Shown piece after piece: positions 1-2,046 of a stretch of 2,046 nt of DNA. The notes below the pieces were generated by a model. It was not told where the DNA came from. It was given only the letters and a program-made list of their open reading frames with translations, and searched no databases. The DNA is from Escherichia coli (GTDB lineage: Bacteria > Pseudomonadota > Gammaproteobacteria > Enterobacterales > Enterobacteriaceae): the NCBI RefSeq assembly GCF_036507355.1, contig NZ_AP027885.1. One strand, given 5' to 3'. Position numbers and translations under genes: made by a program. How positions within the stretch are numbered: the first letter of the stretch is position 1; the number at the start of each line of letters is the position of its first letter.

Positions 1-1
1 C

Positions 2-403
2 CGTGGCACCCGTAGCCAGGTATCGATCTCACCGGAGGCGCTGGAGCCGCGTGTACTGCGGAAGGGTATTTTCACCAAAGACGTGGAAGATCAGGCAGCC
101 GTAGCCAAACGTTTAAGCCAGGCAGTGAACGATGGCTTTGCAGGAACCGTCGCTATGGCCTCTCAGAGCGCCCAGAATGCAAAAAGAGCGCGCGAGCTAC
201 AGAAGACTATGGATTCGCAGCAGAAACGCCTACAGAGCGTTACAGAGCCTTTTAAGGGGCTTTCCAGAGAGCAGATGACAGAAATCCTGATGATGGCTCA
301 GCGGTTTAAGCAGCAAAACCAGGAGAAGGAGAAACAGCAGCGTGTCGAACGTGAGACACAGCGACAGATGCGATCCCGTGGCATGGGCGGTATGGAGCGT
401 TAG
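2..403 (+). CDS. 3' portion of a CDS whose start lies outside the window; charged coiled-coil-like C-terminal tail; identity unresolved (possibly a relaxase C-terminal domain or another plasmid protein)
   Basis: Frame 2 is open from nt 2 to TAG at 401-403, with no in-frame stop upstream of the track's GTG at 83, so the gene begins beyond the 5' edge. The translation (...AKRARELQKTMDSQQKRLQ...QRFKQQNQEKEKQQRVERETQRQMRSRGMGGMER) is low-complexity and Q/E/K/R-rich. No catalytic motif recognised. Confidence 0.55.
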   Translation, partial: RGTRSQVSISPEALEPRVLRKGIFTKDVEDQAAVAKRLSQAVNDGFAGTVAMASQSAQNAKRARELQKTMDSQQKRLQSVTEPFKGLSREQMTEILMMAQRFKQQNQEKEKQQRVERETQRQMRSRGMGGMER

Positions 404-465: not shown

Positions 466-900
466 TTAGGTTCTGCCGCCCTGTATAACGCTGAGGCCGT
501 TTTTTAGTGCTTTCTTGTGGTTGCTGACAGTACCTTTCCAGCCAAACTGAGGGTTCAGACGGTAACTGTAACTGCGCCCTACTTTTGGGCCTTGAAGAAT
601 CACGGATAGGTCAATTAGCGCCTTAACCGAACGGCTTACATTGGTTTTCTGCATACCTAAAGCGTCGGCAATATCGGCTTGGGCAATTTGGATGTAATTT
701 TCATAATCGAGATCAGCTAACAGCATCATCAAGACTTTGAATTGCTCCCCTGTGAGGGTCTTAGCAAGGATCTTTAAAGCGTCTTGGTTCATAGTGAAAT
801 GCCTCTCAAAAGCTGACTTCTGTTTGGGTCGGATAACTGCGACAAAACTACCTACCTCTTCCCCTGTAGCAGTGTCTATCTGAGTAATTCGGTTACTCAT
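466..900 (-). CDS. 144-aa predicted winged-helix/HTH DNA-binding protein; candidate small plasmid replication initiator (RepL-like) or autoregulatory repressor
   Basis: ATG is the reverse complement of 898-900 and the TAA stop is the reverse complement of 466-468. An RBS GGGAGAG lies 8 nt upstream (rc of 907-913). The protein has an HTH-like segment (GEQFKVLMMLLADLD...IQIAQADIADALGMQKTNVSRSVKALIDLSVI). The gene has lower GC than its flanks. Palindromic repeats sit in its promoter region. The Rep-versus-regulator call is inference. Confidence 0.75.
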   Translation of the reverse strand: MSNRITQIDTATGEEVGSFVAVIRPKQKSAFERHFTMNQDALKILAKTLTGEQFKVLMMLLADLDYENYIQIAQADIADALGMQKTNVSRSVKALIDLSVILQGPKVGRSYSYRLNPQFGWKGTVSNHKKALKNGLSVIQGGRT

Positions 901-972
901 TTAAGAGGCTCTCCCAAAAAAATAGTTATCAATAATGATAACAACGTTATCAATAATGATAACTATCGTCAA
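901..972 (-). promoter_or_regulatory. Promoter/RBS region of the - strand gene, overlapped by operator-like repeats
   Basis: On the - strand: RBS GGGAGAG (rc of 907-913); -35-like hexamers TTGATA (rc of 927-932 and 948-953) and TTGACG (rc of 967-972); only weak -10 candidates (e.g. GATAAC, rc of 925-930). Exact promoter elements are uncertain. Confidence 0.4.
925..963. repeat. Two tandem 18-bp direct repeats (GTTATCAATAATGATAAC), each internally palindromic, 21-bp register; candidate operator or iteron array
   Basis: Seen in sequence: 925-942 and 946-963 are identical. Each is GTTATCA-ATAA-TGATAAC, and the 3-bp spacer AAC creates a further 7-3-7 inverted repeat between units, giving four alternating heptamers in total. 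Confidence 0.9.
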
Positions 973-1106
973 GCGAGAGCCGCGCCCCACAAGGGCTGAG
1001 AGAAGGCTCTCTTCTGTATCTTATAGCGAGAAGCTCATATGCCCGGATAGCGAACCCTATTTTCATCGGTTCGTGCGTAAGCATTTCTATGCCCGTTCAG
1101 GTGATA

Positions 1107-1196
1107 TTCCGCTTCCTCGTTCAGGCTGTTCGTTCCTCGCTGCGCTGCGGTACGCCTCAGCCTGACCTGCGGCGAGCGGCGCGTGCTCTTTCAAAG
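1107..1196. other. Segment resembling the primosome-assembly / single-strand initiation (pas, n'-site) region found downstream of ori in ColE1/pMB1-type plasmids
   Basis: Hand comparison with the pUC/pBR322 sequence recalled from memory. Colinear exact blocks: ttccgcttcctcg (1107-1119), ctcgctgcgct (1136-1146), ctgcggcgagcgg (1167-1179), and a 9/11 match ctctttcaaag (1186-1196), with insertions between blocks. Needs confirmation by alignment. Confidence 0.35.
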
Positions 1197-1258: not shown

Positions 1259-1382
1259 TTCACCGGATAAAACAGGCTTGGCAGTGGTGGGGGGTGGCGC
1301 GGAGCGACGCCTTCCACCTGCCAGACTGCCGTTGATTTTGACCTTCTGGCAGCTTGCTGCCCGAACGATTTTGCGTAGCAAA

Positions 1383-1413
1383 GTCTAGTGAGTACACTAT
1401 CATCCTGATAGTG
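1383..1413 (+). promoter_or_regulatory. Candidate oriT core / relaxase operator: nested inverted repeats sharing arms, about 70-95 nt upstream of the relaxase start
   Basis: Seen in sequence: TAGTG (1386-1390) - AGTA - CACTA (1395-1399), overlapping the 8-3-8 palindrome CACTATCA (1395-1402) - TCC - TGATAGTG (1406-1413). Alternative hairpins with shared arms are typical of MobV-type oriTs. A possible weak promoter overlaps: -35 TTGCGT (1371-1376), -10 TACACT (1393-1398). The functional assignment is inference. Confidence 0.35.
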
Positions 1414-1468
1414 GCCCGCCGGAGGCATCGCAATGCGATCCCCCGACTGGCTGGATGTACGCCAGAAC

Positions 1469-1475
1469 GAGGGGG
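1469..1475 (+). promoter_or_regulatory. Ribosome-binding site for the relaxase gene
   Basis: GAGGGGG lies 5 nt upstream of the ATG at 1481. Confidence 0.6.
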
Positions 1476-1480
1476 TAAGC

Positions 1481-2046
1481 ATGGCGAATTACGCGATAAT
1501 GCGCTGCAAAAAGCTGACGGGAATGGGCAGTGTGGCCAGCGCTTTGCAGCACTGCTACAGGGAGCGTGAGACGCCGAATGCTGACGCTGAACGGACACCA
1601 GAAAACTACTGCTCTGTGTCTCAGTCGGCAGATGAGGCGATGGGAAAGCTGCGGGAGCTGTTGCCGGAAAAACGCCGTAAAGATGCGGTACTGGCTGTTG
1701 AATACGTTATGACGGCAAGCCCTGAGTGGTGGAACGAGGCCACACCGCGGCAGCAGGCGGAGTTTTTCGCCCGTTCTGAGCAATGGCTGGAGAACAAATA
1801 CGGGAAAGATCGCGTTGTGGCGGCGGTGGTTCACAGGGACGAGGCCACCCCGCACCTGTCTGCGTTCGTGGTGCCATTGACGCAGGATGGGCGGCTGTCC
1901 GCGAAAGAGTTTATTGGCGGGCGGTCAAAGATGCGTGACGATCAGAGCACCTACGCTGAATCGGTAAAAAAACTGGGTCTTGAGCGCGGCATCGAGGGAA
2001 GCCGTGCCACGCATCAGACAGTTCAGCACTACTACGAATCGATAAA
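1481..2046 (+). CDS. mob: MobV-family (Mob/Pre, pMV158 MobM-like) plasmid mobilization relaxase, N-terminal relaxase domain; 3'-truncated by the window edge
   Basis: ATG at 1481 is preceded by the RBS. The frame is open through nt 2046 (188 codons, hand-translated, no stop), which is why it is absent from the ORF track. The translation (MANYAIMRCKKLTGMGSVASALQHCYRER...RKDAVLAVEYVMTASPEWW...AAVVHRDEATPHLSAFVVPL...LERGIEGSRATHQTVQHYY) matches, from memory, the conserved MobV blocks: the N-terminal M-x-Y-x-V-x-R-x-Q-K region, an HNER-like motif, the RKDAVL block and the HxDE..PH metal-binding motif. Confidence 0.9.
   Translation, partial: MANYAIMRCKKLTGMGSVASALQHCYRERETPNADAERTPENYCSVSQSADEAMGKLRELLPEKRRKDAVLAVEYVMTASPEWWNEATPRQQAEFFARSEQWLENKYGKDRVVAAVVHRDEATPHLSAFVVPLTQDGRLSAKEFIGGRSKMRDDQSTYAESVKKLGLERGIEGSRATHQTVQHYYESI

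Follow-up and report, generated by a model that had tools for sequence, protein, structure and literature searches.

A 2,046-bp circular plasmid of Escherichia coli whose MOBV-family relaxase gene runs across the ends of the linear record

An open frame that begins at an ATG and runs to the edge of a sequence without a stop codon raises two linked questions, namely to which gene it belongs and where that gene ends. Such a frame occupies positions 1481–2046 on the + strand of the window, by which we mean the whole stretch of E. coli DNA analyzed here, 2,046 nucleotides in length. On translation, the frame comprises 188 codons with no stop, the chance of which is ~(61/64)^188, or ~1e-4, assuming equal codon usage. 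A sequence-only reading had described the frame as a MobV-family relaxase gene missing from the supplied list of open reading frames, and this description holds: the list records only ORFs contained entirely within the sequence, which excludes this frame, and the motifs quoted for the product are all present (MANYAIMRCKK at residues 1–11, HCYRER at 24–29, RKDAVL at 66–71, and VVHRDEATPHLSAFVVP at 116–132). The best explanation of the whole is a circular 2,046-bp plasmid with a mobV gene that wraps around the ends of the record, and whose product would act by the mechanism of a MobM-like MOBV relaxase; we assign this reading a probability of roughly 0.93.

The mobV frame has no stop at position 2046 because the end of the window joins its start, as expected of a circular plasmid. 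For the junction check, the last 40 and the first 40 bases of the window were fused and sought in related plasmid records, and the resulting 80-bp end-to-start sequence was found to be internal and unbroken in NZ_AP022132.1 (80/80), NZ_CP081700.1 (80/80), and NZ_CP047763.1 (79/80). A megablast search of a plasmid collection matched 204 records, and in 60 of these (~2.0–2.3 kb) the match spans 80% or more of the window; records of 2,046, 2,049, 2,043, and 2,028 bp cover 99–100% of it, and many of the matches are themselves only 2,028–2,049 bp long. The two ends of the window are thus adjacent in the three independent records of the junction check, and the length of the unit equals that of whole plasmid records. 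Among complete E. coli genomes, all 121 matches are plasmid-borne and none is chromosomal, and the plasmid is present in 104 of the 5,426 genomes, with a nearly full-length copy in 50 of these. As judged from these comparisons, the window is one complete circular 2,046-bp plasmid with two genes, and its linear form cuts through mobV.

Beyond position 2046 the frame resumes at position 1, where a C completes the AA of codon 189 (Asn), and positions 2–403 are open in the mobV frame as far as a TAG stop codon at 401–403. The earlier expectation that the sequence would have to be extended in the 3' direction to reach the stop is therefore not borne out, as the wrap supplies it. The complete gene, joined across the circle, measures 566 + 403 = 969 nt and encodes 322 amino acids. 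The annotated mobV of NZ_AP022132.1 is also 969 nt long, with 316 of 322 residues identical, and RefSeq mobV features that cross the record origin are of equal length, such as 1477→402 in the 2,043-bp NZ_AP027806.1. What the list shows as ORF 83..403 (+) belongs to mobV, as its C-terminal portion, and is not a separate gene. The near-identical records are typed by MOB-suite as 'mobilizable; relaxase MOBV', which upholds the earlier view that the gene anchors the window as a mobilizable-plasmid module, but that view was understated, as the "module" is the entire plasmid. The features discussed here are as follows.

1481..2046, + strand: 5' part of mobV, with codons 1–188 and the first two bases of codon 189; relaxase (Mob_Pre) domain.
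1..403, + strand: 3' part of mobV, which finishes codon 189 and ends with the TAG at 401–403; C-terminal helical domain; contains the listed ORF 83..403.
466..900, - strand: rep-like gene for a 144-aa winged-helix protein, convergent with mobV and the only other gene of the plasmid.
925..963, no strand assigned: a pair of identical 18-nt palindromes (GTTATCAATAATGATAAC), lying 21 nt apart immediately upstream of the rep-like gene.
1368..1413, + strand: candidate oriT, with a hairpin, 8 nt, the predicted nick, and a second inverted repeat.
1469..1475, + strand: Shine–Dalgarno-like GAGGGGG, 5 nt before ATG 1481, read directly from the sequence.

The constraint on mobV was assessed in an alignment of the gene and 480 nt upstream of it with nine related plasmids, which range from 98% to ~61% nucleotide identity in the gene. 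No stop interrupts the mobV frame in any of the 9–10 related plasmids examined, and the variable columns within 1481–2046 are distributed over codon positions 1, 2, and 3 as 61/49/128 (chi-square p = 1.2e-10). The same bias is present among the close relatives (eight sequences), both within 1481–2046 (12/2/38, p = 2e-9) and within window positions 1–400 (6/4/19, p = 0.001), and in each close relative the synonymous codon differences outnumber the non-synonymous ones in both parts of mobV. These patterns are better evidence for the gene than the length of the stop-free stretch, and they show that mobV is under purifying selection; its C-terminal third is more loosely constrained, yet clearly coding. 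The overlapping ORFs that the list offers in place of mobV (1400..1855 -, 1530..1712 +, and 1354..1569 +), already regarded as almost certainly spurious from the sequence alone, are interrupted by stops or left without a start codon in several relatives, as is 1260..1598 on the - strand, and all four were rejected.

The position of the start codon was weighed between ATG 1481 and an in-frame ATG at 1433, which is preceded at a distance of 7 nt by GGAGG. The segment 1433–1480 is out of frame in five of the nine relatives (L007, L008, L010, L011, and L012), and in 121 of 150 family representatives the protein begins at the equivalent of M1; ATG 1481 is therefore taken as the conserved start, and ATG 1433 was rejected. 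In some records, PGAP places the start at the equivalent of ATG 1433, 48 nt further upstream, giving genes of 1,017 nt.

The family of the product is defined by profiles that cover its whole relaxase domain. Pfam Mob_Pre (PF01076) matches with E = 7.7e-46 over model positions 1–195 of 196, and the NCBIfam MobV profile NF041497 is matched at positions 2–187 of 187 with 163.6 bits, where the curated cut-off is 100; no second Pfam domain was found in the full-length 322-aa protein. Neither outcome that the earlier reading had named as refuting it, an absence of Mob_Pre/MOBV matches or an in-frame stop, was observed. A search of 1.84 billion cluster representatives returned 7,430 relatives at E <= 1e-3, and tblastn matches fall in 2,279 plasmid records, of which 1,848 are typed as mobilizable; the chief hosts are Staphylococcus, Enterococcus, and Bacillus, followed by Escherichia. 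The sole sequence relative with a solved structure is MobM of pMV158 (PDB 4LVI; E = 2.6e-14, MobV residues 5–185). An AlphaFold model built with 77 relatives (mean pLDDT 93.2) consists of an alpha/beta domain (residues 1–190) followed by long helices at 220–273 and 278–316. In a Foldseek search with this model, ranks 1–7 are all MobM relaxase domains (target-normalized TM 0.79–0.83, rmsd ~2.6 Å, E-values as low as 4e-14); MobA of R1162 comes next at TM 0.55, and MobA, TrwC, and TraI all lie far behind. The predicted fold matches that of the MobM relaxase domain, and the profiles and the model together support the gene product as a member of the MOBV relaxase family. The C-terminal domain of MobV is weakly conserved.

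The MOBV1 group is defined by motif I HxxR, motif II NY(D/E)L, and motif III HxDExxPHUH (PMC3105389, PMC5090054). Motif I is present in MobV as H24-C-Y-R27, aligned to H-N-E-R of MobM; H24 and R27 are each found in 144 of 150 representatives, and both are invariant in the 77-sequence alignment. The HxDExxPH part of motif III is likewise present, as H118-R-D120-E121-A-T-P124-H125, with D120 and E121 conserved in all 150 representatives, P124 and H125 in 148, and H118 in 139, while H178 is invariant or nearly so among the 150 nearest representatives. Motif II reads N42-Y43-C-S, so that just the NY of NY(D/E)L is kept, with N42 invariant in the 77-sequence alignment. Motif III departs from the MOBV1 form at its end, where the sequence is HRDEATPHLS and Ser127 stands opposite the last histidine of MobM. 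The motifs that had been quoted as a hallmark of MobV/Pre proteins are thus characteristic of MOBV in general, but lack the final histidine of MOBV1, and by its motifs MobV is a MOBV member outside the MOBV1 definition.

The absence of the third histidine is a trait of the branch and not damage to the present copy, because position 127 is other than histidine across the 150 nearest representatives, in which S, V, Y, T, A, and I are the most frequent residues. Judging from the alignment, the metal site of MobV cannot be the same as that of MobM. The Gram-negative branch keeps the motif-I histidine and the pMV158-type oriT layout despite its non-histidine position 127, and we tentatively suggest, as a possibility that we consider rather unlikely, that this branch may hold the catalytic metal in a site of two histidines and a carboxylate, unlike the solved site of MobM. 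Such a site, if real, could relate to the activity of pBBR1 Mob, which a mention in PMC3105389 describes as obtained with Mg2+ and not with Mn2+.

The DNA ~90 nt upstream of mobV contains a candidate oriT. Its hairpin has a 7-bp stem formed by ATTTTGC (1368–1374) and GCAAAGT (1378–1384), with one G–T pair (T1369/G1383) and a GTA loop. The 8-nt stretch CTAGTGAG (1385–1392) follows, then T1393, and then a second inverted repeat composed of CACTATCA (1395–1402) and TGATAGTG (1406–1413). The minimal oriT of pMV158, known as 'IR1+8', reads ACTTTATGAATATAAAGT-ATAGTGTG/T, that is, ACTTTAT-GAAT-ATAAAGT-ATAGTGTG/ and then T (PMC3105389), and the 8-nt stretch of the window differs from it at two of eight positions. 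By analogy with pMV158, the nick is predicted to fall between G1392 and T1393 on the + strand. A hairpin, ~8 nt, and a GpT adjoin the gene, as a cognate oriT would require, a correspondence that holds at the level of sequence only. The segments TAGTG (1386–1390) and CACTA (1395–1399) could also form an alternative hairpin around the nick, like IR2 of pMV158. A promoter scan upstream of mobV found no sigma-70 consensus site.

The conservation of this element exceeds that of mobV itself. The block ~1373–1427 is almost invariant in the upstream alignment, and it is kept both in L009, a plasmid with otherwise unrelated upstream DNA, and in L012, a plasmid from Pseudomonas in which mobV is ~65% identical. 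The core AAAGTNTAGTGNGT is found at a single place in the window and in none of 200 shuffles, and the single-stranded fold consists of two hairpins around an unpaired GTCTAGTGAGTA (-10.1 kcal/mol, z = -2.57). An Aeromonas plasmid with a MobV of 50% identity carries ACTTTAC-GAA-GTAAAGT-CTAGTGAG-T at an equal distance from the mob start codon, and a MOBV plasmid of S. aureus carries ACTTATT-TCAA-AATAAGT-CTAGTATG-T; the stems vary among these plasmids, with the pairing retained. The core was not evident in a simple pattern search of a Psychrobacter plasmid, whose MobV is 37% identical.

The second gene of the plasmid (466..900, -) encodes a protein identical to WP_004193480.1 of related plasmids, which matches Pfam RepL (PF05732) with E = 7.5e-5 over residues 6–132 and MarR_2 with E = 3.2e-5. 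From these matches, its product is a probable replication initiator. A paralogous record labels a protein of this type 'replication protein'. The two 18-nt repeats at 925–963 overlap a promoter-like site on the - strand (962→935), and are a probable operator or iteron, probably the sites to which the initiator binds; a mir-451 match on the same repeats was dismissed as chance (E = 0.92; 18.7 bits, with a gathering score of 66.5). That match was the only one in an Rfam scan of the window, which returned no RNAI or ColE1-type RNA. The segment 1107–1179 resembles the part of pUC19/pBR322 that lies just downstream of the ColE1 origin (score 40; the highest of 200 shuffles scored 31). The surrounding ~1103–1190 has matches in the unannotated DNA of 471 plasmids, of which 222 are conjugative, and is a candidate primosome-assembly or single-strand-initiation site.

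The likely mechanism of mobilization can be modeled on MobM of pMV158, which uses a histidine rather than a tyrosine to cleave at 5'-GpT-3' (PMC5863519). The N-terminal domain (residues 1–190) would bind the hairpin at 1368–1384 together with the 8 nt that follow it, ahead of the mobV start, while a divalent metal would be coordinated by H118, H125, and E121 or D120. The equivalent of the MobM nucleophile, H24, would then cut the GpT step G1392/T1393 on the + strand and remain covalently attached to the DNA. The C-terminal two-helix domain (220–316) would presumably allow MobV to dimerize and to dock onto a coupling protein that a co-resident conjugative element supplies. Neither a coupling protein nor a secretion system is encoded on the plasmid, which would rely on those of a helper, through which a single strand would be transferred and then re-ligated in the recipient. 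Overlap of oriT with the mob promoter might in addition allow mobV to be autoregulated.

Three other accounts of MobV were weighed against this mechanism. One of them holds that the protein is chiefly a 'Pre' site-specific plasmid recombinase, engaged in the formation or resolution of co-integrates, and not a conjugative relaxase. Such a role is suggested by the name of the Pfam family ('Plasmid recombination enzyme'), by several records that label relatives 'plasmid recombination protein', and by the GO term 'DNA recombination' assigned by PGAP, but we consider it improbable: the prototype MobM is an experimentally proven relaxase that nicks oriT (PMC3105389, PMC5863519), an element with the pMV158 oriT layout lies upstream of mobV, and MOB-suite calls the plasmids mobilizable. 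Recombinase and relaxase activities moreover use one chemistry and are not mutually exclusive. The notion that MobV doubles as a rolling-circle replication initiator, leaving the small helix-turn-helix protein as a transcriptional regulator only, strikes us as barely credible. The plasmid has just two genes, PGAP names the helix-turn-helix protein 'MarR family transcriptional regulator', and PMC5737340 describes an influence of MobM on plasmid replication control; however, the helix-turn-helix protein matches the RepL family over almost its whole length at the E-value given above, and its gene adjoins the two 18-nt repeats, which are typical of an initiator-binding site. The mob module is also found joined to different second genes, as would be expected if a variable module supplied replication, and an E. 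coli plasmid that combines MOBV2 with a RepL-like Rep is known (PMC8148099).

It is also highly improbable that mobV is an inactive remnant that has lost the third histidine of the HUH motif, in a plasmid kept by vertical inheritance only. Ser127 in place of the MOBV1 histidine would agree with decay, and one otherwise identical record, NZ_CP081700.1, is without 18 bp that include the HRDEAT codons. The former is common to all 150 nearest representatives, none of which has a histidine at this position while the other catalytic residues are invariant, and the latter gap falls exactly at the linearization junction of its record, which led us to reject a biological loss of motif III; the gap is probably an assembly artifact. 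The frame is intact in every relative examined, the third-position bias and the synonymous excess indicate purifying selection, and the module is carried by Escherichia, Klebsiella, Salmonella, Enterobacter, Citrobacter, and Pseudomonas, a distribution that fits horizontal spread.

Plasmids of this type are common among gut bacteria and had been recognized and annotated before, so that the finding is correct but ordinary, and its biological weight, as a further copy of a common cryptic 2-kb mobilizable plasmid of Enterobacteriaceae, is small. Its practical lesson lies in the handling of linearized circular replicons: a list of ORFs that drops frames running off an edge hides the largest gene and displays spurious antisense and out-of-frame ORFs in its stead, and the linearization makes the C-terminal part of mobV look like an unrelated small ORF at the opposite end of the window. 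Public records share this problem, as start calls are inconsistent among near-identical plasmids and one record has probably lost, where its ends meet, the 18 bp that include the catalytic HRDEAT codons. With its predicted nick at G1392/T1393, the conserved oriT offers a simple and testable handle for studies of mini-plasmid mobilization.

The closest known systems are the near-identical enterobacterial plasmids of ~2.0 kb, such as NZ_AP022132.1 (pWP5-S18-CRE-02_6), NZ_CP053743.1 (pCP8-3-2k), NZ_AP027806.1, and NZ_CP081700.1, which share 95–100% whole-plasmid nucleotide identity with the window. They have the same two genes, including a RefSeq 'MobV family relaxase' that runs across the record origin, and differ by point substitutions and by the point of linearization. 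Plasmids of this kind, in which PGAP calls mobV, are found in E. coli, Enterobacter, Klebsiella, Salmonella, and Citrobacter, and the mob module is also joined to other replication genes and occurs within a 9.5-kb sul2 plasmid.

The comparison with MobM of pMV158, the MOBV1 prototype (PDB 4LVI/4LVJ/5N2Q), reveals a shared core with several departures. Both proteins have the Mob_Pre domain and its fold in common (TM 0.83), the HxxR motifs align with their nucleophile histidine, HxDExxPH is present, and each gene is immediately preceded by an oriT (a candidate one in the window) composed of a 7-bp hairpin, 8 nt, and GpT (PMC3105389, PMC5863519). In contrast, the two proteins are only 27–28% identical and differ in length (494 aa in MobM, 322 aa here), the third histidine of the HUH motif in MobM is a serine here, and motif II is NYEL in MobM but NYCS here. 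The host here is Gram-negative, and the partner replicon is RepL-like, whereas pMV158 has the RepB rolling-circle replicon.

The plasmids of Proteobacteria that carry pBBR1 Mob or 'MOBV2' relaxases are likewise small and mobilizable, with Gram-negative hosts and a MOBV relaxase of ~320 aa. The N-terminus of pBBR1 Mob is probably very similar to that of the MobV described here, while the replication protein of pBBR1 is of a different type. pBBR1 itself is a MOBV mobilizable plasmid of 2,687 bp (PMC12282955). The MOBV2 and RepL-like Rep described together on an E. coli plasmid (PMC8148099) fit the pair of genes found here.

The mob module, that is, the non-coding region upstream of mobV together with mobV itself (window about 1070-2046 plus 1-403), is found again at 92-97% identity in plasmids of 2.4-4.5 kb, where it resides beside different second genes (loci L009, L010, L011, and L013 in related plasmids bear on this recurrence). 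The 9.5-kb plasmid pDEC5B-3 has a diverged copy of the module (76%), flanked on both sides by sul2. These settings indicate modular exchange. The 8,913-bp E. coli plasmid record CP077068.1 (database matches H17 and H41) also has three places that match the window; it may contain the 2-kb plasmid unit several times over, either as a multimer or through concatenation during assembly.

The features considered outside the mobV coding sequence are as follows:
466-900, minus strand: gene for a winged-helix protein of 144 aa, with weak but nearly full-length Pfam matches to RepL and MarR_2
925-963: an 18-nt palindromic repeat (GTTATCAATAATGATAAC) in two identical copies 21 nt apart, adjoining the 466-900 gene
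1217-1258: perfect 10-bp inverted repeat (TCGTCAAGGG / CCCTTGACGA), with 22 nt separating the arms
428-458: 11-nt inverted repeat (AACGCCGCAAA / TTTGCGGCATT), within the 62 nt that separate mobV from the rep-like gene convergent with it

The protein encoded at 466-900 is variously annotated as an HTH, MarR, or replication protein, and the 925-963 repeats overlap a promoter-like site; the product is probably a Rep protein, with the repeats serving as its operator or iterons. The inverted repeat at 1217-1258 is unchanged in most relatives that carry the mob module. The one at 428-458 lacks a T-run, and the terminator scan gave no call there. The non-coding DNA at window 1103-1190 resembles the pUC19/pBR322 segment immediately downstream of the ColE1 origin, in the pieces TTCCGCTTCCTCG...CTCGCTGCGCT...CTGCGGCGAGCGG. 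Unannotated DNA matching this stretch is present in 471 plasmid records, 222 of which are conjugative and which include many Pantoea plasmids. The stretch is a candidate site for primosome assembly or single-strand initiation.

The start of mobV is called inconsistently by PGAP among near-identical plasmids, with some genes beginning at ATG 1481 (969 nt) and others at the in-frame alternative ATG 1433 (1,017 nt), preceded at 7 nt by a good GGAGG. The 1,017-nt version is probably a miscall, because the frame across 1433-1480 is lost in five relatives. The record NZ_CP081700.1 is identical to the window apart from 1 mismatch and an 18-bp gap, in which window 1831-1848, coding for H118-T123 (HRDEAT) in the core of the metal-binding motif, is absent. 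As this gap coincides exactly with the record's own linearisation junction, NZ_CP081700.1 is probably an over-trimmed assembly, in which case the RefSeq protein WP_223602153.1 would bear an artefactual deletion.

Ser127 (window 1859-1861) stands where the HUH motif of MOBV1 relaxases has its third histidine. Across all 150 nearest cluster representatives, this position is occupied by S, V, Y, T, A, or I, and H178 is nearly invariant in the same set. This MobV branch must have a different metal site from the one in MobM, the MOBV1 prototype of pMV158.
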